From: an uncultured Bacteroidota bacterium
GTDB taxonomy: Bacteria; CLD3; SB21
Direction of reading: 5' to 3'
Assembly (NCBI GenBank): GCA_964544475.1
Contig: CAZJBS010000010.1
Span: forward strand, 9,961 to 73,960
DNA: 64,000 nucleotides
Positions within the stretch are counted from its first letter, which is position 1; each line of letters starts with the position of its first letter. A program made the position numbers and the translations under genes. Shown in pieces: positions 53,729 through 64,000 of the stretch. The notes below the pieces were generated by a model, which worked only from the letters and a program-made list of their open reading frames with translations, ran no database searches and was not told where the DNA came from.

Positions 53729-54876
53729 GGCCGGCTTCTTTCGTTCAGGAGGTTCAGGGCCCACGCCAGGCTCTGGCGCAGCGCCCGGCGGTCGTGCCAT
53801 TCGAATAGTCCGGCTTTGCCGATGTCACGCAACAGCACCAGCCGGAGCCGGCCGTCGCGCTTTTTTTTGTCATGGTCCATCCGGCGAATAACGTCTCCGG
53901 CGTCGACGCGGCGAAGGAACGACCGGACCGGTTTTTGCGAGACCACCTGCGCCAGCGGCCGCTCTATCGTCATCAGAATGGTTTCCAGATCGTCCTCGCC
54001 GATCAGGCCGGCCTGTAACGACAGATACGACGCCGCGAGCATGCCGATCCAGACGGCTTCCCCGTGGCGGATTGCCGAAAACCCGCCGGCGCTCTCCAGC
54101 GCATGCCCGAACGTGTGCCCGAAATTGAGGATCATCCGCCTGCCGGCGTCTTTTTCATCCTTTGCCACGACACCGGCCTTGAGGCGCACGCTTTCGCGGA
54201 TGGCTTTCCGGACGACGGGGCCGCGGCTCATCAGGGCCGCATGATGTTTTCTGAGCCATTGAAAAAAAGACGCATCGACGGCCAGACCGTACTTGAAGAC
54301 TTCGGCGAGGCCCGCCAGGTATTCGCGATCGGGCAATGTGTCCAGAAACGCCGTGTCCGTGAGGACCAGCGACGGCTGGTGAAAGACGCCGATGATATTT
54401 TTGGCCAATGGATGGTTGACGGCGACTTTGCCGCCGACGGAACTGTCCACCATCGCCAGCAGAGTCGTGGGCGCCATGACGAGCGGCACGCCGCGCATGT
54501 AGGTGGCCGCCACAAATCCCGCGAGATCGCCGATGACGCCGCCGCCCAGCGCCACGATAACGCTGTCCCGGTCCGCCCCGGCGGTGATGAGACGCGTGTG
54601 AAGATCGAACGCGCGGTCATACGTTTTGAAGGCTTCCCCATCGGGCACCATGAGGATGCGCGCGTCCAGGGCGCGAAACACCGGACGCAGCCGGGGACCA
54701 TGCCGCCGGAGAATGACCGGATTGGTGATGACAAAAAAACGAAACGCGCGGACGGTGCGACGGATCAGCCGGTCCAGACGCGATACGGCGTCGAAAACCA
54801 CCGGGTAGGTGTGACGTCCGGCGCGGACGGTCAGCATGCGGGCCGTCGTGGGCAACGTGGGCGCGGGATCATACAT
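53725..54876 (-). CDS. aroB: 3-dehydroquinate synthase
   Basis: Motifs GGGVIGDLAGFVAATYMRGV, VDSSVGGK and the HTFGHALE metal-binding His pair. The start could instead be the ATG at 54837, which would avoid the 8-nt overlap with ychF. Confidence 0.8.
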   Translation of the reverse strand: MYDPAPTLPTTARMLTVRAGRHTYPVVFDAVSRLDRLIRRTVRAFRFFVITNPVILRRHGPRLRPVFRALDARILMVPDGEAFKTYDRAFDLHTRLITAGADRDSVIVALGGGVIGDLAGFVAATYMRGVPLVMAPTTLLAMVDSSVGGKVAVNHPLAKNIIGVFHQPSLVLTDTAFLDTLPDREYLAGLAEVFKYGLAVDASFFQWLRKHHAALMSRGPVVRKAIRESVRLKAGVVAKDEKDAGRRMILNFGHTFGHALESAGGFSAIRHGEAVWIGMLAASYLSLQAGLIGEDDLETILMTIERPLAQVVSQKPVRSFLRRVDAGDVIRRMDHDKKKRDGRLRLVLLRDIGKAGLFEWHDRRALRQSLAWALNLLNERSRP

Positions 54877-55963
54877 TGAACTTGAAGTGCATCACATCGC
54901 CGTCGCGCACGACGTAGTCGCGGCCTTCGGTGCGGAGAAGACCTTTGTCGCGGCAGGCCTGTTCGGTTTTGTATTTCACATAGTCCTCCCACCAGATCAC
55001 ATCGGCGCAGATGAATCCCCGTTCAAAATCCGAATGGATCGTGCCGGCCGCCTGCGGGTTTTTGGCGCCGCGATGAATGGTCCACGCGCGCACTTCGTCG
55101 GGACCCGCCGTCAGGAAACTCACGAGGTCGAGCAGTACGTAGGTTTCACGGATCAGCGTGTGCAGGCCGGGTTCCTTCAGGCCGATGCTTTCCAGGAAGG
55201 CCGTGCGCTCCTCCGCGGGGAGTTCCGATATTTCCGCTTCGATTTTTCCCGAGATGACGACCACGCGGGCGTTTTCGCGCGACGCGATGGTCCGTACGGT
55301 CTCGACGTACCGGTTGCCGGACAGGACGTCCTGCTCGGATACGTTGCAGATGTAGAGCACGGGTTTGTCGGTCAGGAGGAAGAGGTCGGCGACGTGGTGT
55401 TTTTCCGTTTCGGAAAGGCGGAGCAGGCGGAGCGGTTGGCCGGTGTCGAGATGGGATTTGACGCGCGACAGCGCTTCCACGGCGGCTTTGGCGTCCTTGT
55501 CGCCGGTCTTGGCGGTGCGCTCGGTCTGGGGAAGGCGTTTCTGCACGCTTTCGAGATCCTTGAGCACGAGTTCGGTATGGATGATATCGATGTCGCGGGC
55601 CGGATCGATGCTGCCTTCGACGTGCACGACGTCGGGGTCATCGAAGCACCGCACGACGTGGCCGATGGCGTCGACTTCGCGAATGTGGCTCAGGAACTGG
55701 TTGCCGAGGCCTTCGCCCGCATTGGCGCCTTTGACGAGACCGGCGATATCGACGAAATTGACGGTGGTATAGATGGTTTTTTTCGGTTTCAGCAAAGCCG
55801 ACAGCTGGTCGATGCGGTGGTCCGGCACGATGACGACGCCGACGTTTGGTTCGATGGTGCAGAACGGGTAATTGGCCGCCGCCGCGCCGGCCGCGGTCAG
55901 GGCATTGAATATCGTGGATTTTCCGACATTGGGCAGTCCGACAATTCCGCAATGTAGAGGCAT
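54869..55963 (-). CDS. ychF: Redox-regulated ATPase YchF (Obg-family GTPase)
   Basis: 364 aa. G1 motif GIVGLPNVGKST, a TGS domain and the C-terminal YchF domain. Confidence 0.9.
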   Translation of the reverse strand: MPLHCGIVGLPNVGKSTIFNALTAAGAAAANYPFCTIEPNVGVVIVPDHRIDQLSALLKPKKTIYTTVNFVDIAGLVKGANAGEGLGNQFLSHIREVDAIGHVVRCFDDPDVVHVEGSIDPARDIDIIHTELVLKDLESVQKRLPQTERTAKTGDKDAKAAVEALSRVKSHLDTGQPLRLLRLSETEKHHVADLFLLTDKPVLYICNVSEQDVLSGNRYVETVRTIASRENARVVVISGKIEAEISELPAEERTAFLESIGLKEPGLHTLIRETYVLLDLVSFLTAGPDEVRAWTIHRGAKNPQAAGTIHSDFERGFICADVIWWEDYVKYKTEQACRDKGLLRTEGRDYVVRDGDVMHFKFNV

Positions 55964-56132
55964 GACGCGGGCAACTCCTTCATGGAACGTATGTTTTCAA
56001 AAGACGCGCTAAAGTAGTCGTTCCCGCGAAGAAAATAAAGGAGAATGTGCCGCGCCGGCGTAAAAAACGCCGCGCGGAGTTTCCCGGGCGGCGCGAAAAA
56101 AAAGTGAAACGATTAATTCCTTGACAACCATC

Positions 56133-56162
56133 GGAGCGTGCGCTAACTTGGAACAGCTATCG
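56133..56162 (+). promoter_or_regulatory. Weak sigma-70-like promoter candidate for the first island gene
   Basis: TTGACA, then a 17-bp spacer, then TAACTT. The -10 is poor, so this is a low-confidence call. Confidence 0.2.
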
Positions 56163-56278
56163 CTATCGGGTTATCGTATGAATTCCAGAACAGACTATTT
56201 CAGCGTCGAAATTTTTCACGTCCGGCGGCAGGCTATGGCCGGCCAAGCCAGAACAGCCAGGAACAAAATAACCGACAT

Positions 56279-57049
56279 ATGTCGTCTATCACGCCCAAAA
56301 TGAGAAGATATACGACATGGATCATTCGTTTATGCAATAGTTATCCGACATGGCCCTCGACGAAGAAACACATGAGCGGAGATACTAAACCTGGTGTTCC
56401 TCATCAAACTCTTGGGGACGCAGCCCACGCGCTTCTGAAAGGAACTATCGGCAGTGTTCCGGTAGGCGGTGCTCTTGCTGCGGAATTTTTTAGTTTCGTA
56501 CTAAAACCTCCCATGCAGAAGCGAATGGAGGACTGGATGGCCGACCTGGTTCAGAGGCTGACCGAGATGAAGATGTCGATCGACGATTTGCAAGAGAACC
56601 AGCGTTTCGTCACAAATACACTGCAATCTCTGCGTATTGTTCAAATGACACACTCACCTGAGAAGCTCAGAGCCTTACGGAATGCAGTTCTCAATTCAAT
56701 CGCGCCACCGCCTTTCGACGAATCCTTGGAACAGGTGTTCCTTTCGTATGTTGATTCTTTCACTGATTACCATATTAGGTTTCTTGCTATGATCGCGGAA
56801 CCGAATTGGCCGATCAAACAACGCAAGGTGGTTACCTCACCTGACGCAAATCTTTATGAAATCATCTACCATCACTTTCCGCAGCTGCAAGGATCATCGT
56901 TTGTCACTCAAGTCTTTCAGGATTTGAACGCGCGTGGGCTGCTGGAACCCAACTGGGACCGTGGCTTTAAGCTAAGCTGGAGTAGTGGATATCCGGTGTT
57001 GTCTCCACTCGGAAGATCGTTTCTCAAGTTCATTTCGGAGGCTGAGTAG
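56279..57049 (+). CDS. Hypothetical protein (first gene of the lower-GC island)
   Basis: 256-aa ORF with alternative in-frame starts at 56300 and 56372 (MSGDTKPGV...). The 56279 ATG lies inside a perfect palindrome, cgacatatgtcg. No family recognised. Confidence 0.5.
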   Translation: MSSITPKMRRYTTWIIRLCNSYPTWPSTKKHMSGDTKPGVPHQTLGDAAHALLKGTIGSVPVGGALAAEFFSFVLKPPMQKRMEDWMADLVQRLTEMKMSIDDLQENQRFVTNTLQSLRIVQMTHSPEKLRALRNAVLNSIAPPPFDESLEQVFLSYVDSFTDYHIRFLAMIAEPNWPIKQRKVVTSPDANLYEIIYHHFPQLQGSSFVTQVFQDLNARGLLEPNWDRGFKLSWSSGYPVLSPLGRSFLKFISEAE

Positions 57050-57067
57050 ATGTCTCGGGCCACGTCC

Positions 57068-57234
57068 GATAACATGCGTGCACACGATTGGTCGCCCCGA
57101 CGCGAGCGTCAGATGCCCCCGGCCACGATTTTTGTGCGTCGGGGCTCCCCTACGGCGCACCGCGCGGAACGAATTGAAAACAAATTCATTGATACCGCTT
57201 GTGCGCCGCAGCGTGTGCACGCAGACCGTTATGT
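57068..57234 (+). repeat. attC-like imperfect palindromic element 1
   Basis: 5' end GATAAC-a-tgcgtgcacacg and 3' end cgtgtgcacgca-gacc-GTTATGT. The terminal 12-mers are inverted repeats. It contains an internal 10-bp hairpin (gccccgacgc / gcgtcggggc). It lies in the gap after the first island gene. Confidence 0.45.
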
Positions 57235-57243
57235 GCAATGCCG
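57089..57243 (+). repeat. 155-bp direct repeat, copy A (about 88% identical to 62580..62733)
   Basis: Aligned by eye: tggtcgccccgacgcgag[c/t]gtcagatgcccccggc ... cgaattgaaaacaaattcattgataccg ... cagcgtgtgcacgc ... gttatg[t/c]gcaatg, with a few substitutions and one indel. Confidence 0.8.
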
Positions 57244-57301
57244 CCTAAAAATATGAACAAACCGCACGCCATCATTCTCAACATACATAGGAGAACGTAA
57301 A

Positions 57302-57811
57302 GTGAAATCAAAGACGAACGAGGTTGTCAAGAAACTTCGTGAACTCAACACGATAATAAAATCACTGGATCCTTCTATCCGGCCGCAGTCTTTTGAATTG
57401 CTCCGTCCAGTCTTCTTCAGCGATGAGCCTGAGCACGAGCGAGATCAACGAGACCAGCAAACAGAGACGGCTGGCAAGTCAACAGGCACTCACAACAAAG
57501 AAAAGTTTTTCGGGTCGTTTGATCACAAAAAGCCCAGTGATAACGTCTTCTTGATTGCAGCATGGCTCTACTCCCAACACGGAGTTTTTCCACTCACATC
57601 AGATACTATTAAGGCGGTGGCGGACGAAACAGGTGTCACTGTTCCCGGTAGGCCAGATATGACCCTCAAAGCGGCTCAAAAAAAGGCAAAGCACCTATTT
57701 TCCAAACAAGGCGCTGGTTATAAACCAACTGTTCACGGTGAGACGTTCCTCAAAGACACATATCGAGTCAAGAAAGGAAACAGCCCCATACCAAAGGAGC
57801 CTGAGAATTGA
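57302..57811 (+). CDS. Hypothetical protein, upstream partner of the HEPN-motif protein
   Basis: 169 aa. Its stop overlaps the next gene's start by 4 bp. The C-terminal roughly 70 aa (FLIAAWLYSQHG ... LTSDTIKAV ... GAGYKPTVHGETFLKD) resemble the N-terminal domain of the downstream protein, so the two share a domain. Confidence 0.5.
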   Translation: MKSKTNEVVKKLRELNTIIKSLDPSIRPQSFELLRPVFFSDEPEHERDQRDQQTETAGKSTGTHNKEKFFGSFDHKKPSDNVFLIAAWLYSQHGVFPLTSDTIKAVADETGVTVPGRPDMTLKAAQKKAKHLFSKQGAGYKPTVHGETFLKDTYRVKKGNSPIPKEPEN

Positions 57812-58551
57812 CAATAGTCGAGTTTCTACATCCAATACTGAGATCACCGCACCGGGACCTTTGTGTTGCGGCTCTGTATTATTCGAAAAGATTCCAACAG
57901 TCTGATTCATTAACCGTCGATCAAATTCGTTCGTTGCTTAGAAGAGCTCGTGTTCCAAGTGTTAATAACATCAACATAGCAGACGTGCTTGCTAAATCAG
58001 CTCCTCATGTCGACAGTGCTGGCAAGAAAGGAAAAGCTTTTCTTTGGGCGATCACTTCGTCAGGCGAAAAGCACATACGAGCCTTGCTAAATATTCCTGA
58101 GGTCGATATTGCAACGGTCCATGAGGTCGGCACACTTGAGCGCCTTATCAACTCCATCGGTGATCCTGATGTGGCCAACTATCTAACAGAAGCAGTCACT
58201 TGCCTACGTGTTGACGCTCTTCGTGCCTCTATCGTGTTTCTGTGGGCTGGCGCCGTTCGTACCATTCAAAAGGAAATGATCGATCTTGGCGCGTCCTCAG
58301 TTGACACCGCCTTAAAGAAATTCGACCCCAAATCCCGGTCGATCAAAGGGCTAGACGACTTTGCGTATGTCAAGGATTCGACAGTGCTTCTAGCAGCCCA
58401 AGAACTTGCCATCTTTGACAAGAATGAGCGGTCCACACTCGAGGAGGCTCTGAACTTAAGGAACAAATGTGGTCATCCCAGTAAGTATCGACCTGGCCCG
58501 AAAAAGGCTGCAAGTTTTATTGAAGACGTCACAACCATCGTTTTTTCTTGA
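57808..58551 (+). CDS. HEPN-motif protein (predicted RNase, toxin or abortive-infection type)
   Basis: 247 aa, apparent TTG start. C-terminal R-N-x-x-x-H motif (LNLRNKCGHP, about nt 58459-58476) inside a predicted helical domain, matching the HEPN Rx4-6H signature. N-terminal domain is shared with the preceding gene. Confidence 0.5.
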   Translation: MTIVEFLHPILRSPHRDLCVAALYYSKRFQQSDSLTVDQIRSLLRRARVPSVNNINIADVLAKSAPHVDSAGKKGKAFLWAITSSGEKHIRALLNIPEVDIATVHEVGTLERLINSIGDPDVANYLTEAVTCLRVDALRASIVFLWAGAVRTIQKEMIDLGASSVDTALKKFDPKSRSIKGLDDFAYVKDSTVLLAAQELAIFDKNERSTLEEALNLRNKCGHPSKYRPGPKKAASFIEDVTTIVFS

Positions 58552-58580
58552 GATGGCGTGCGGTTGATAGCGGCACTGCA

Positions 58581-58724
58581 CATAACAGGCCGCACTACGA
58601 CGTTCGCTCATTTGATATGGCGATAAGAAAGCTGTGCAAGAAACAAAAGTGCTCACTCAATGGCTAACCATTCCGCTATTGCTCCATTCGTTAGCTACTG
58701 CGTAGTGCGGCCGGAACGTTAGGC
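58581..58724 (+). repeat. attC-like imperfect palindromic element 2 (best-preserved copy)
   Basis: 5' CATAAC-a-ggccgcactacg and 3' cgtagtgcggcc-ggaac-GTTAGGC. The 12-bp arms are perfectly complementary. The 3' end is a canonical attC core sequence GTTRRRY (GTTAGGC), and the 5' end is an inverse-core-like ATAAC. Confidence 0.5.
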
Positions 58725-58752: not shown

Positions 58753-59340
58753 ATGAACCTATTCACAACTGAAGCCCTGCGGCTATTTGTTGTCTTTTTC
58801 GTACCTGGCTTCATTTCAATGCGTGCTTTCTCCCTACTAGTCGCGTCTGAAAGACATGATTTTTCAAAATCATTGGTCGAAGCAATCGCATTTAGTTGCT
58901 TAAACTTTGCTCTTCTTTACTGGCCCATGAGTGTCATCCATTCGAATGATTTTGCTCATCAGTACCCAATACTATACTACCTCAGTGCTCTGGGTATTCT
59001 GTTAGTTGCACCGTGTGCTTGGGCATGGTTGTTCTATCGAATTATGATTTCTGACTGGTACTCGAAACGATTTCGAGACCCTTACCCAACTCCATGGGAC
59101 AGCTTTTTCGCTCGCGGAGAAGCATGTTGGGTAGTTATCCACCTAAAGAGTGGCAGGAAGATTGGTGGTATTTATTCTGGACGCTCTCGCGCATCAGCTT
59201 ATCCGACCGAACAACAAGTCTATCTCGAAGAAGTGTGGGAGGTGGATCAGAAGACCCAACGCTTTCTACGTAAGAAGAATCGGACAGCTGGACTTATAAT
59301 CAGCAGATCAGAGATGACTCACATTGAGTTCTACAGTTAA
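58753..59340 (+). CDS. Hypothetical membrane protein (3 TM helices plus C-terminal soluble domain)
   Basis: 195 aa. Hydrophobic segments LRLFVVFFVPGFISMRAF, AIAFSCLNFALLYWPMSVI and LYYLSALGILLVAPCAWAWLFY. No family recognised. Confidence 0.5.
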   Translation: MNLFTTEALRLFVVFFVPGFISMRAFSLLVASERHDFSKSLVEAIAFSCLNFALLYWPMSVIHSNDFAHQYPILYYLSALGILLVAPCAWAWLFYRIMISDWYSKRFRDPYPTPWDSFFARGEACWVVIHLKSGRKIGGIYSGRSRASAYPTEQQVYLEEVWEVDQKTQRFLRKKNRTAGLIISRSEMTHIEFYS

Positions 59341-59354
59341 GAAAGGATCCGCCA

Positions 59355-59525
59355 ATGGCAGACGAGACGAAAAACACGAATTCCTCTAACGTTCCGAAAT
59401 CGGACGAAAACAAGGGCTCAATCAAGGCGGGACGAGATATCAAAGAGAGTTACAGCCCACGCAACGAGCTCGATACTTCTAAACCGCCGCAGGGAGATGG
59501 TACATCAAAAAAGGACGATAAGTAA
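59355..59525 (+). CDS. Candidate 56-aa hydrophilic, low-complexity small protein
   Basis: ATG 14 nt after the membrane protein stop, preceded by gaaaggatcc (Shine-Dalgarno-like). It encodes MADETKNTNSSNVPKSDENKGSIKAGRDIKESYSPRNELDTSKPPQGDGTSKKDDK, predicted disordered. Not in the ORF track (shorter than 60 aa). Confidence 0.25.
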   Translation: MADETKNTNSSNVPKSDENKGSIKAGRDIKESYSPRNELDTSKPPQGDGTSKKDDK

Positions 59526-59540
59526 GAGCGTGGACTCGCC

Positions 59541-59716
59541 GCATAACAGGCGAGCACACGTTCGCTCGCGGCGTGCTCATTCCCGTCGGGTGCACGCCGC
59601 TTCGCACACGGCGCACCGACGATTTTCGATTGGAGATTATGAATAGATTTGATCTATGAAGAACGATGAAACCAAGATTGGCGGGCGCCGCGTCGTGTGC
59701 TCGCGAACCGTTATGC
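59541..59716 (+). repeat. attC-like imperfect palindromic element 3
   Basis: 5' GCATAAC-a-ggcgagcacacg and 3' cgtgtgctcgcg-aacc-GTTATGC. The arms are inverted repeats. It shares an internal 11-mer, acggcgcaccg, with element 1. Confidence 0.45.
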
Positions 59717-59755: not shown

Positions 59756-62098
59756 ATGAAACACTTTGCAGAAGTACTTCAAACTCTCGGCGCGAGTAAA
59801 ATCGAGCCACTTTCTGAAACTCAGCATTGGGACTTCTGGAAGGCAGTCTACTCGACTCCAATCTCCGAAGTGAGCGGCTACTATCTATATTTGAAATCGA
59901 GCTGTCCTTGGAAAGAAGGGAACAACAGGGCAAATTGGGACACATGGCAAAAACCTTCAAAGGGAAACTACGAAATTATTGTAACGCCGGCCAGTGACTT
60001 CATAAGGAAGCCCAGTCAAACTATTGCAGCCTTCAAGGGAACTCGCGTGAGAACATCGAAGGAACTCTTGCTGAACAATTTTGTGAAGAGCCTCACACTG
60101 GAAGAAATAATATCAGAGGAAAATTTCATCGACCCGACACTTGAACTTGAGAACGGTCGCGTGAGCCAGGATACCACACACTTTCTCATCTCTTGGATCA
60201 AGGGACGGGATAGTGCAACCAAAGGTGTATCCATTGCAGCTTTGGTTGCTGATGGCGGCGTTGGCAAAACCACAGTGTCTCGTGTACTGAGTCGATCTCT
60301 CCATGAGGACGATCCGACTGTTATCCCTATCCTCATAGAATCCGATCAATGGCGGCATCTGCTTAACACGCCTATTTCGCTTAGCAACCTTTGGGACTTG
60401 GCCATCTCACGGCGCTTTCAGAATGCCGCTAGACTGTTGTCTAATGAAATGGCTTTTCGCGTTCTCGTAAGGGAAGGACTCTTTGTAATCATCTTCGACG
60501 GTTTTGATGAACTTTGCGTTAATTCTTATGCTGTGTCGCGTCCCAAAGAAATTATCGACGAGCTTATAACCCTCCTGTCGCCTGAAGATGAGCCCGTACA
60601 AGCAAAAATTGTATTAACAGCCCGCAGCACGTTCTGGGAGTCATTGGCAGATGAAATCGAGCTTAAGGACATCGAGACATTTTACCTTCGGGGGTTCGAT
60701 AATGATCAACGCAAGAGCTATTTCGACAAAACGCTAACCACTCACGAAGAAAGAGACATTGCAAATCGTTTGTCTCGACAGATTAGTGGAGCCATGTACG
60801 AAGGCATCAAACCTGAAGATCACAATTACGAAAGACCTTCCGGAGTACCATTTATCTTGAGCCTAATCGCCCAGTACGTCCGGGGCAGTGTCCATTTGAT
60901 TGAGGTAAATCCATACATGGCGGACCCGTTGGAGCGTCTCCTCGAAGATATCTGTCGTCGAGAAAACCTTCGACAATCACTTGACATCGAGCCCACAAAA
61001 CAATTAGAGCTTTTTGAGGAACTCTTCCGGGAATATCAGGAATCAATCCAACTAACCGATTTGCAAATGTATCTTGACGTAATCTGCAACATCAACGACA
61101 AAGAGACCGCCAACCGGTTCACGAACCATGTTTTCCTAACTCGCACTGAAAAAGACACTTTTGGGCCGCGCTATGAAGTCCTCCGAGTATACTTTATAGC
61201 ACGCTTCCTTGCCAAAGGCCTGCTTGAGCTGACGACAAAAACTCCTCGACAACAAATCGCACGGTTGCTGGCAAAGAACAGCACCGGAAAGACCCAGGTC
61301 ATCGACTGGCTTATCTTGCAATTGCGTAATTTGGAACAAACAACCCTCATAAGGTCAATACACCACGCACTAGCCATTATTCGCGATCAAGATAACCGTT
61401 CTACGCTCTCTCAGTCTTCTTCGGCGATTTTCCATGTTGTTTCCAGCCTCATCTCGGGCGGCGACAAAGATGAACGCACTCGTCTACTCTGTGATTTCTA
61501 TAATATCGATAGAAGCGGCACAGTTGTTTTCAAGGCAGTTGTATTCGCAGGTGTGGTCCGGTCCTTCAGTTTTCGTGACGCAATCTTCGAGAAATGTGAA
61601 TTTTACGATGTCGAGTTTAAGAATTGCACTTTTGGCGATGCTTCTACATTCCGAACATGTAGCTTCTACGGAAATCTTAAATTTACTAATTGTTCAAATG
61701 CGGGCTCGATAAAAACACAGATCTGCACTTTTTCAAGGGAATCAGAGTTCGCACTTGATGTCATTAGAAACTCACACTCAAGAATGGAGCTAAAACGTTC
61801 TTTCGCAGAAGAAGCATTGTCCCGATCCCTTCGCAAGTTTCGAAAGGACAATCGGTTTATTCCTATCCAGTACGAGCACCGCAAGACTGGATTCAAGCCA
61901 GGCAACCCATATAACGAGACAGTGTGGCAGGAACTTGAACGAGCTGGGCTTATTCACTCTCATCACATATCTGGAGTCACCGGCGGAGGTCTCAACATTG
62001 TCGACGACAAGAACGTGCGACGAGAAGTGTCGTCCTTCCTGGACAATGGCGTACTTGGCAATTTGTTGACCAACGTGCTAACAAAAATGATCACATAA
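59756..62098 (+). CDS. STAND/NACHT-like P-loop NTPase with C-terminal pentapeptide-repeat region (antiphage-sensor-like architecture)
   Basis: Start placed at MKHFAEVLQ (ATG 59756, AAGGTG Shine-Dalgarno upstream), about 780 aa. Walker A ALVADGGVGKTTV (about nt 60254-60271). Walker B hhhhDGFDE (FVIIFDGFDEL, about nt 60497-60511). A long helical middle region. Pentapeptide-like repeats (AVVFAGVVRSFSFRDAIFEKCEFYDVEFKNCTFGDASTFRTCSFYGNLKFTNCSN, about nt 61580-61770). The N-terminal roughly 160 aa are of unknown function. Confidence 0.65.
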   Translation: MKHFAEVLQTLGASKIEPLSETQHWDFWKAVYSTPISEVSGYYLYLKSSCPWKEGNNRANWDTWQKPSKGNYEIIVTPASDFIRKPSQTIAAFKGTRVRTSKELLLNNFVKSLTLEEIISEENFIDPTLELENGRVSQDTTHFLISWIKGRDSATKGVSIAALVADGGVGKTTVSRVLSRSLHEDDPTVIPILIESDQWRHLLNTPISLSNLWDLAISRRFQNAARLLSNEMAFRVLVREGLFVIIFDGFDELCVNSYAVSRPKEIIDELITLLSPEDEPVQAKIVLTARSTFWESLADEIELKDIETFYLRGFDNDQRKSYFDKTLTTHEERDIANRLSRQISGAMYEGIKPEDHNYERPSGVPFILSLIAQYVRGSVHLIEVNPYMADPLERLLEDICRRENLRQSLDIEPTKQLELFEELFREYQESIQLTDLQMYLDVICNINDKETANRFTNHVFLTRTEKDTFGPRYEVLRVYFIARFLAKGLLELTTKTPRQQIARLLAKNSTGKTQVIDWLILQLRNLEQTTLIRSIHHALAIIRDQDNRSTLSQSSSAIFHVVSSLISGGDKDERTRLLCDFYNIDRSGTVVFKAVVFAGVVRSFSFRDAIFEKCEFYDVEFKNCTFGDASTFRTCSFYGNLKFTNCSNAGSIKTQICTFSRESEFALDVIRNSHSRMELKRSFAEEALSRSLRKFRKDNRFIPIQYEHRKTGFKPGNPYNETVWQELERAGLIHSHHISGVTGGGLNIVDDKNVRREVSSFLDNGVLGNLLTNVLTKMIT

Positions 62099-62341: not shown

Positions 62342-62579
62342 TTCCGTCGCACGACTTTTTTTCTTTCTCGACTTTGTTGGGGCTATGATGTAATTTGATC
62401 CTGTAAGTTCATTTCTTGGGGAGTAGCAAGTGGCTCTGGGTTCAGTTCTTTCGTGCATTTCAAGTCTCGTTCAGGAAAACGAATACCGCGCTCGTGCGAT
62501 TCGTACGGGGTTGAACGGTCATACCAGTTGCCGAGATTTCGATTGGGATTCCCGAATTCCTCCTCCCCGTGCCACGTCC

Positions 62580-62733
62580 TGGTCGCCCCGACGCGAGTGT
62601 CAGATGCCCCCGGCTGCGATTTTTGTGCGCCGGGCTTCCCTCGGCGCACGGCGCGGATCGAATTGAAAACAAATTCATTGATACCGATTGTGCACCGCAG
62701 CGTGTGCACGCGTGACGTTATGCGCAATGACTG
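62580..62733 (+). repeat. 155-bp direct repeat, copy B (about 88% identical to 57089..57243). A decayed attC-like element that keeps its 3' end.
   Basis: 3' end cgtgtgcacgcg-tgac-GTTATGC is retained. The 5' arm is degenerate (ccgtgccacg versus cgtgcacacg) and the ATAAC is lost (gaattc). The internal hairpin of copy A is disrupted here (gcgccgggc). Confidence 0.8.
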
Positions 62734-62755
62734 CGACCTGAGTCCCAACTAACTT

Positions 62756-63711: not shown

Positions 63712-64000
63712 ATGAATTTGCCAGAAGATCGTAATCGCACTTTATCCCAGTTTCGAGAAGGGCCGATGCTACTCGACAAGACTGTCAGCGATCTGCAAGA
63801 CTCCGAATTGGATCTCATTCCTACCGAAGGTGGATGGTCTATTCGACAGATCGTCCATCACATTGTGGATGGGGATGATATTTGGAAGTTTGGTATCAAG
63901 ATGGCCATTGGTAACGAACAGGCTGAATTTTCACTGGAATGGTACTCCTCACAGACGCAAGATACTTGGGCTGATCGATGGGCGTACACCCAAAGATCAA
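63712..64000 (+). CDS. DinB_2 (DinB/YfiT-like) family protein, 5' portion (runs off the window end)
   Basis: ATG at 63712. MNLPEDRNRTLSQFREGPMLLDKTVSDLQDSELDLIPTEGGWSIRQIVHHIVDGDDIWK contains the metal-binding His region typical of DinB_2. No stop before the window end. Confidence 0.55.
   Translation, partial: MNLPEDRNRTLSQFREGPMLLDKTVSDLQDSELDLIPTEGGWSIRQIVHHIVDGDDIWKFGIKMAIGNEQAEFSLEWYSSQTQDTWADRWAYTQRS

Follow-up and report, generated by a model that had tools for sequence, protein, structure and literature searches.

Gene 1 and gene 2 (169 and 247 aa; the names serve here for the open reading frames, ORFs, and for their products) are two overlapping reading frames in a 64,000-nt stretch of DNA from an uncultured Bacteroidota bacterium (assembly GCA_964544475.1, contig CAZJBS010000010.1). 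This stretch is referred to below as the window, and coordinates are those of the window. The C-terminal domain of gene 2 is established, by profile comparison and structural modelling, as a member of the HEPN superfamily, and is homologous over its full length to the catalytic domain of DARNA, a ribonuclease (RNase) that acts by abortive infection; by that analogy gene 2 is itself a presumptive RNase. The two genes constitute a conserved, self-contained and horizontally mobile module, which in this window travels as an integron gene cassette. On balance, and with the analogy to DARNA in mind, the pair is probably a toxin/antitoxin-like, abortive-infection-type module, gene 1 serving to keep gene 2 off.

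Among the effectors of CRISPR-associated, abortive-infection and toxin-antitoxin immunity, HEPN RNases hold a central place, and the open question about them is how they are held off and switched on. The initial annotation of the window took the decapeptide LNLRNKCGHP of gene 2 (residues 215-224; R218 codon at 58459-58461, H223 codon at 58474-58476) for a HEPN motif. A bare Rx4H string is weak evidence, easily arising by chance. R218, N219, G222 and H223 are invariant in the alignment of 64 relatives, and the motif is retained in 109 of the 111 listed cluster representatives (clustered at 50% identity) that have the full C-terminal domain; N219 is the polar residue that follows the R in HEPN Rx4-6H motifs. 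In the AlphaFold2 (AF2) model of gene 2, which was built on 64 sequences with a predicted local distance difference test (pLDDT) score of 92.4, residues 101-245 are all-helical; helix 3 (205-221) ends in R218/N219, H223 lies in the loop that follows, and the last helix spans 231-245. A motif at the end of helix 3 is what has been set out for HEPN domains (PMC3710099). The motif is accordingly placed within a HEPN-like bundle in the model; a position outside one had been named beforehand as grounds for giving up the assignment. Foldseek comparison of the model, as a two-domain query, with the PDB yields a best E value of 0.04 and none below 0.01, and is useful as fold-class evidence: the C-terminal region matches HEPN proteins (HepT, MNT-HEPN, AF_0298; 7ae6/7ae8, 5yep, 6m6w, 7bxo, 1wwp, 2hsb and 2q00), each match being weak taken singly (E of at least 0.2) at probabilities that rise to 0.99 (2q00: probability 0.99, TM 0.68).

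Profile searches connect this domain with a characterised RNase. A profile of 31 diverse gene 2-type C-terminal domains (A4), searched against the PDB, matches 9wx2 ('Dandelion-hepn', E=3.4e-5) and 9wxf ('Dandelion', E=2.4e-4) over 118 columns, aligning LRNkcgHP over the HRHLSAHP of 9wx2, and the recovered 9wx2 chain fragment is a PADLOC PD-T7-3 match (E=6.7e-62). PD-T7-3 of E. coli, a single 456-aa protein, has since been renamed DARNA; its N-terminal HEPN RNase has the catalytic residues R117x4H122 and cuts tRNA anticodon loops, its HEPN dimers form the catalytic centres, it assembles into a dodecamer, and it is switched on by single-stranded DNA (ssDNA) on a C-terminal Pds5-like domain (aa 160-456) to bring about abortive infection (bioRxiv 10.64898/2026.02.22.705581). 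Aligned by hhalign with the HEPN domain of a DARNA-family profile (six DARNA homologues from plasmids), the gene 2 C-terminal domain gives 98.8% probability (E=5.8e-17) over 130 columns, which span the domain from end to end and reach through its last helix; none of ten column-shuffled controls exceeds 0.45%. The phage protein family phrog_27609 also matches gene 2 (residues 123-246, E=8e-6). The invariant motif and the homology to DARNA together sustain the original HEPN assignment.

Standard family collections are less informative about the two proteins. Scans of gene 1 and gene 2 against Pfam, NCBIfam and PADLOC return no significant family, a single-sequence phmmer search of the PDB with gene 2 returns nothing, and a Pfam scan of all 64 family members at E values up to 10 returns no consistent family; gene 2-type C-terminal domains give isolated weak matches to HEPN_RiboL-PSP, DUF4145 and HEPN_Swt1. 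The opinion, offered with the initial annotation, that neither protein can be placed in a nameable family thus holds for these local collections but not for gene 2 in newer Pfam: gene 2 and all 120 relatives listed carry the precomputed tag PF27235 'AF_1680', so the family is already catalogued. No functional study or description of the gene 2 family (PF27235/AF_1680) was found in the literature, and literature searches on AF_1680, and on 'Dandelion' as a defence system, gave nothing informative.

Gene 1 is modelled (AF2, pLDDT 80) as a helical hairpin (aa 2-39), a disordered, charged linker (aa 42-61, pLDDT <50) and a C-terminal winged-helix domain. It had been proposed, from short shared segments, that the end of gene 1 and the beginning of gene 2 are diverged copies of one domain. 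BLASTP of gene 1 against gene 2 does not detect the shared domain (E=3.1). Profile alignment does, and the aligned segments are the ones originally picked out: a first hhalign run of the gene 1 C-terminal against the gene 2 N-terminal alignment gave 85%, three control domain pairings staying below 5%, and alignments of 31 and 45 sequences give 92.8% (E=4e-7) over 76 columns, with 20 column-shuffled controls at or below 1.6%. In both AF2 models the elements follow the same order, helix-strand-helix-helix-hairpin-helix (aa 78-154 of gene 1, aa 15-93 of gene 2). Foldseek matches of the N-terminal region of gene 2 include FOXN1, SarZ, MepR and STIV F93 (probability 0.8-0.98); those of the gene 1 model in the PDB are weak (best E=0.33) and nearly all winged-helix proteins (LysR, CRP/FNR, MarR, ORC, Cdt1), and a BFVD search returns just small winged-helix proteins. 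By profile alignment and modelled fold, then, the winged-helix domains of gene 1 and gene 2 are paralogous. Recognisable relatives of gene 1 are few (a single-sequence search finds 21, a profile search 38), all of them stand-alone proteins without a Pfam domain, and gene 1 evolves faster than gene 2 (36-44% against 53-60% identity at the same loci).

The gene 2 family numbers at least 397 proteins (E<=1e-3), nearly all of 244-249 aa. The 54 loci retrieved from species-representative genomes span Nitrospinota, Nitrospirota, Acidobacteriota, Planctomycetota, Pseudomonadota, 'delta proteobacteria' metagenome-assembled genomes (MAGs), Actinomycetota, Chloroflexota, Saccharibacteria, Sumerlaeota, Vulcanimicrobiota, Elusimicrobia and others, so that the pair is present in at least 10 bacterial phyla. 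Outside the actinobacteria, essentially all full-length loci have a match to a gene 1 hidden Markov model (HMM) immediately upstream of gene 2. The two genes overlap by 4 bp in 20 of 34 related pairs and are at most 19 nt apart in the remainder. In the actinobacterial branch the gene 1 HMM fails; most of the upstream ORFs are still built in three parts (helices, a Pro/Ala-rich linker and a C-terminal domain with the signature 'KP.N..EK...VYWL'), while at three loci (L044, L048, L049) the upstream ORF looks different and at one (L032) the case is unclear.

The pair, and nothing around it, is what is conserved. Flanking genes are unrelated between loci: phage-type integrases, insertion sequence (IS) transposases, TraT and DNA methylases are among them, as are recA, tRNA synthetases and triose-phosphate isomerase. 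This heterogeneity led to the rejection of a conserved third gene. A phage-borne origin was likewise rejected, the pair being on only 1 of 2.9 million IMG/VR contigs. At one locus (L059, 7591-10777) a 78%-identical pair directly follows the methylase and endonuclease of an EcoRI-type system, and a restriction-modification system of DpnII type lies 7 kb upstream; in Xanthomonas arboricola (L002, 4113-6744) a phage-type integrase precedes the pair, which is its first cargo, and at two other loci DinB_2 proteins flank it. Decayed copies of gene 2 exist: in an isolate of Terasakiispira papahanaumokuakeensis (L008, 4001-4744) an in-frame stop lies just before the RNxxxH motif, and two further copies (L038, L055) are frameshifted.

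In the window the pair is part of a cassette array. At roughly 56000, directly after a ychF-like gene (54869-55963, minus strand), the GC content drops from ~0.60 to ~0.48, and all intergenic gaps between that point and the window's end have the form '...(G/A)CATAAC ... imperfect inverted repeat ... GTTA(T/G)(G/C)C'. A heuristic for attC sites (TAAC and GTTA cores separated by 45-260 nt, next to which an inverted repeat of 11 nt or more is required) picks out just three sites in the 64 kb, at 57067-57234, 58580-58724 and 59541-59716; shuffled windows yield 0-1. The first two bracket gene 1 and gene 2, which makes the pair one cassette of ~1.5 kb, starting with GTT at about 57228. The bottom-strand fold of the second has a 12-bp stem, a 4-nt bulge and, at the termini, TAAC/GTTA pairing. 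The gene 1-gene 2 unit thus ends, as an integron gene cassette does, in an attC-like site whose R'' (...AAC) and R' (GTT...) enclose an imperfect inverted repeat. On an independent contig of 1372 nt (L060), a 77%-identical pair is flanked by textbook GTTAGGC and GCCTAAC cores; that pair, lying between canonical cores, indicates that the sub-lineage circulates as a cassette. The single attC-like site that had been seen after the two genes is borne out by the calibrated scan for AAC...GTT cores with an inverted repeat, and the cassette status then proposed gains support from the bracketing sites and from the second cassette. (This should not be extended to the family. Of 57 related loci scanned, only 1-2 have an attC-like site adjoining the pair, L027 and perhaps L046; the pair as an integron cassette in general was for this reason rejected, and the module is mobile in general, not integron-specific.) No integrase or obvious attI is visible on the left side of the array, where it is expected (54869-56278) and where the ychF-like gene abuts the array; the right side runs past the end of the window. 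The array may be a cluster of attC sites without an integrase, or its integrase may lie elsewhere or beyond the window. The features of the locus are collected in Table 1.

Table 1. Coordinates of the gene 1-gene 2 cassette and its component features in the 64-kb window
Feature	Position	Strand	Description and basis
attC-like site 1, closing the previous cassette	57067..57234	+	...GATAAC, 12-14-nt inverted repeat, GTTATGT; attC heuristic
Shine-Dalgarno GGAGA	57290..57294	+	7 nt upstream of the gene 1 GTG start; sequence
gene 1	57302..57811	+	ORF, GTG start, 169 aa; proposed partner/antitoxin-like regulator
winged-helix domain of gene 1	57533..57763	+	aa 78-154; hhalign and order of secondary structure
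Shine-Dalgarno AAGGAG	57794..57799	+	within the end of gene 1 and 8 nt before the gene 2 TTG; sequence
gene 2	57808..58551	+	ORF, TTG start, 247 aa; proposed RNase effector
winged-helix domain of gene 2	57850..58086	+	aa 15-93; AF2 secondary structure, Foldseek
HEPN domain of gene 2, DARNA type	58108..58542	+	aa 101-245; profile, hhalign, Foldseek, phrog_27609
R218-N-K-C-G-H223 codons, Rx4H catalytic-type motif	58459..58476	+	invariant residues; in register with DARNA R117/H122
attC-like site 2, closing the two-gene cassette	58580..58724	+	ACATAAC, perfect 12-bp inverted repeat (58588-58599 with 58701-58712), GTTAGGC

The two ORFs and their 4-bp stop/start overlap (TTGA, 57808-57811) are exactly as first annotated, in the ORF list and in the sequence. 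The AAGGAG near the end of gene 1, placed before the gene 2 TTG, suggests that translation of gene 2 is coupled to that of gene 1. The interval between the attC-like site and gene 1 has no entry in the inverted-repeat listing, and an Rfam scan of the window detects no RNA family.

The neighbouring cassettes are varied in content. The first of the array encodes a 256-aa protein (56279-57049, plus strand) that weakly matches phrog_26838 (E=4.5e-5) and the PADLOC candidate PDC-S13 (E=0.014). Right after the pair comes a cassette for a DUF6338 membrane protein (58753-59340, plus strand; E=9e-37) that also contains a charged ORF of 56 aa (59355-59525, plus strand); the same order of DUF6338 protein and 56-aa ORF is repeated on an independent Logan contig (L001). 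The next cassette but one (59757-62098, plus strand) encodes a protein of ~780 aa that combines pentapeptide repeats with a NACHT NTPase domain (E=1.6e-8), an NLR/Avs-like STAND protein that is unusually large for an integron cassette; its ORF is listed from 59666, yet the attC-like site before it ends at 59716. Farther on, positions 62580-62725 are ~90% identical to the right three-quarters of attC-like site 1 (57090-57240) and lack its left arm (ATAAC and stem); this site at ~62.6 kb is a truncated or recombined attC, overlapped by a minus-strand ORF (62383-62748). The last, incomplete cassette (63712-64000, plus strand) has an ORF that resembles a DinB-superfamily protein, by reading of 'IVHHIVDGDDIW'.

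How might the pair work? The toxin/antitoxin-like reading, in which gene 1 keeps gene 2 off, is proposed because of gene order, the 4-bp overlap, mobility and analogy. Gene 1 would be made first and in step with gene 2, and would act as an antitoxin-like gatekeeper that holds gene 2 inactive, perhaps as a pairing partner or mimic of its winged-helix domain, or as a cap over the HEPN face; that winged-helix domain of gene 2 may itself bind nucleic acid or the partner protein. Once gene 1 is lost, degraded or displaced, or a nucleic-acid cue reaches the winged-helix domains, HEPN dimers would form, and only this dimerisation would create a composite active site to which two protomers contribute R218 and H223. 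The dimers would then cut cellular RNA, tRNA anticodon loops being the probable targets if DARNA is a guide, and translation would stop, leading to growth arrest. Phage infection or loss of the cassette might serve as the trigger, and the outcome could be abortive-infection-type defence, addiction that stabilises the cassette array, or both.

Two further observations count in favour of gene 1 as a gatekeeper of a toxic gene 2. One is that gene 2, broken by a nonsense mutation or frameshifts, is found beside an intact gene 1 at two of the loci with decayed copies (L008, L038). The other is a context of mobility and defence: restriction-modification neighbours, the NACHT cassette, integrase and IS elements.

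A number of points weigh against this arrangement. Gene 1 resembles no known antitoxin, and its layout, with the DNA-binding-type domain at the C-terminus and the linker in the middle, is atypical in the sense that it is not the commonest one among antitoxins. Neither a sigma-70-like promoter nor a palindromic operator was found upstream of gene 1 in a promoter scan (for which the sigma-70 consensus may not be that of the host), which leaves autoregulation unsupported; expression of the pair may depend on a promoter of an upstream cassette. That the two proteins make contact is conjecture. In two MAGs (L025, L026) a split gene 1 stands beside an intact gene 2, possibly through sequencing or assembly error; if real, the split argues against an essential antitoxin. 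Lastly, the PADLOC model of PD-T7-3 matches gene 2 at only E=0.017 and over 45 residues, a weak match that later proved meaningful.

The HEPN module also occurs in proteins of quite different build. An exhaustive search with the C-terminal domain profile gives 1,535 cluster representatives at E<=1e-3 (~1,500 clusters at 50% identity), and 41 of the 111 listed representatives with the full C-terminal domain have more than 200 extra N-terminal residues. Tyrosine recombinases of ~360-460 aa (Phage_integrase, mostly with a SAM-like domain) end in a HEPN domain with its RNxxxH intact (P0189, P0192, P0196, P0200, P0254 and others); at the one such locus inspected (L052, 3113-4417) the recombinase-HEPN gene is apparently solo. 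Other proteins combine two SAP domains, a winged-helix domain and HEPN (P0206), four CxxC zinc-ribbon motifs and HEPN (P0172, whose N-terminus matches the PADLOC candidate PDC-M01B at E=1.6e-4) or a coiled coil and HEPN (P0225). An apparent fusion of gene 1 and gene 2 (P0168), in which the R is changed to L and the junction looks degenerate, was not used as evidence. The phage family phrog_27609 (418 profile positions) starts with a related HEPN domain, which also matches one of the recombinases (P0189 residues 293-430, E=4.9e-10). The recovered DARNA fragment matches neither Pfam nor phrog_27609, and the latter absence sets phrog_27609 apart as a third lineage, HEPN-first. Several of the partner modules are of nucleic-acid-binding type, which echoes, by analogy, the coupling of sensor to RNase in DARNA.

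This range of architectures bears on a different account of the pair, in which both winged-helix domains would sense a phage-derived nucleic acid or protein-nucleic-acid complex and, in a DARNA-like manner, promote HEPN oligomerisation and RNA cleavage. Gene 1 would then be a co-sensor or adaptor required for activation, and gene 2 alone would be neither toxic nor protective. The account draws on the homology of the HEPN domain to an RNase that ssDNA switches on through a non-catalytic domain, on the fusions to tyrosine recombinase, SAP and zinc-ribbon partners, which fit a logic of 'nucleic-acid sensor plus RNase', on the defence genes nearby (restriction-modification systems and the NACHT cassette), and on the toleration, in two MAGs, of a split gene 1 beside an intact gene 2. 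It does not explain as readily why the small gene stands first, in strict order and with a 4-bp overlap, which is the classic antitoxin-toxin arrangement; the recombinase-fused and other single-gene versions do without gene 1, so that a co-sensor like gene 1 is no universal requirement of the HEPN module; and the winged-helix ligand is only putative. Gene order, overlap and mobility are as compatible with such a sensing, abortive-infection system as with a classical antitoxin; overall we regard the joint sensor as the main rival, though the less likely of the two.

That the pair lies inside an attC array, adjoined by integrases and IS elements, and that toxin-antitoxin cassettes stabilise chromosomal integrons, would also suit a type II-like toxin-antitoxin pair that stabilises the array or other mobile elements by post-segregational killing and has no role in phage defence. 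With most family members outside integrons, several of them next to restriction-modification systems, and with a defence protein as the closest characterised relative, so exclusive a function is improbable; besides, defence and addiction are not mutually exclusive. The suggestion that the pair is no conflict system, but a pair of winged-helix transcription factors or an RNA-processing or regulatory module with a non-toxic HEPN domain for ligand binding or the processing of specific RNA, can appeal to two winged-helix domains that suggest DNA binding and to HEPN domains that are non-catalytic or work in RNA maturation, but it is very hard to credit given the invariant, catalytic-type R, N and H, the patchy distribution across phyla with unrelated flanks and mobile-element neighbours, the travel of the pair as an integron cassette and the existence of decayed copies.

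To return to gene 1 as a gatekeeper: its paralogy with the gene 2 winged-helix domain invites a more specific and distinctly speculative proposal. Gene 1 might be a 'paralogue-decoy' that occupies the surface, or the nucleic-acid ligand, which the gene 2 winged-helix domain needs in order to join two HEPN domains; a specific DNA or RNA cue, comparable with ssDNA in the case of DARNA, would switch the enzyme on, and the HEPN domain would be a plug-in module that tyrosine recombinases, SAP proteins and zinc-ribbon proteins have recruited in their turn. Were the decoy proposal true, DNA-sensing RNases would form a broad and so far undescribed class, with recombinases bearing their own RNase among its members. 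The recombinase fusions in any case pose an unexplained link between site-specific recombination and RNA cleavage. The pair itself is a compact, readily cloned candidate, with an effector domain clearly related to that of DARNA, for which the ssDNA trigger is known. Its regulatory parts are entirely different, so that a comparison of the two could show one RNase module rewired to different sensors. The pair also adds, with a NACHT-NTPase cassette nearby, to the evidence that integron arrays store defence-type modules.

Toxin-antitoxin and defence cassettes are common in chromosomal integrons, where the former act as stabilisers, and the integron literature describes other HEPN defence cassettes (Taranis, Esos and an AbiU2-type protein); the gene 1-gene 2 pair was not found in the papers that describe these three. 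The 'Integron cassette HEPN' family of Anantharaman et al. (2013), represented by PDB 3jrt, is gammaproteobacterial and belongs to a mobile integron element, its members being proposed as stress-linked or dormancy-inducing RNases (PMC3710099). It resembles gene 2 as a HEPN protein in an integron cassette, but no partner gene is mentioned for it (PMC3710099). PDB searches with the gene 2 family produce no sequence match to 3jrt, which is also outside the top 50 Foldseek matches, and we regard the pair as distinct from that family.

HepT-MntA (HEPN-MNT; PDB 5yep, 6m6w, 7ae8) is, like gene 1 and gene 2, a two-gene system with a small HEPN RNase toxin on mobile DNA, and its structures are among the Foldseek matches of the gene 2 C-terminal domain. 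The partner in that system, however, is a nucleotidyltransferase that AMPylates the toxin, whereas gene 1 is a winged-helix protein with no nucleotidyltransferase match in Pfam or NCBIfam; and the HEPN toxins are single-domain proteins of ~130-150 residues (in the matched chains), whereas gene 2 adds a winged-helix domain.

The comparison with DARNA/PD-T7-3 (PDB 9wx2/9wxf) is closest at the effector. The homology runs the length of the HEPN domain, with catalytic R and H in register and an RN..(A/G)HP signature common to both. In each case the RNase is joined to a non-catalytic domain, one for which nucleic-acid binding has been shown in DARNA and one of a binding-type fold class in gene 2, and by analogy translation arrest is a likely outcome of both. 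The two differ in build: gene 2 is a protein of 247 aa with its HEPN domain at the C-terminus, after a winged-helix domain of ~90 aa, and always has a second gene beside it; it does not have the domain architecture of DARNA and scores far below the PADLOC PD-T7-3 level.

With type II toxin-antitoxin cassettes the pair shares its genetic organisation, two short co-oriented genes with one attC and a start/stop overlap, the smaller, DNA-binding-type protein being encoded first; gene 1 and gene 2 are, as in those systems, small, coupled and conserved as a pair. It departs from them in belonging to no known toxin-antitoxin family in Pfam, NCBIfam or PADLOC and in having no operator or promoter that could be found. 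The gene 1-gene 2 pair is thus most like DARNA/PD-T7-3 in its effector and most like a type II toxin-antitoxin cassette in its genetics, and is a member of neither.

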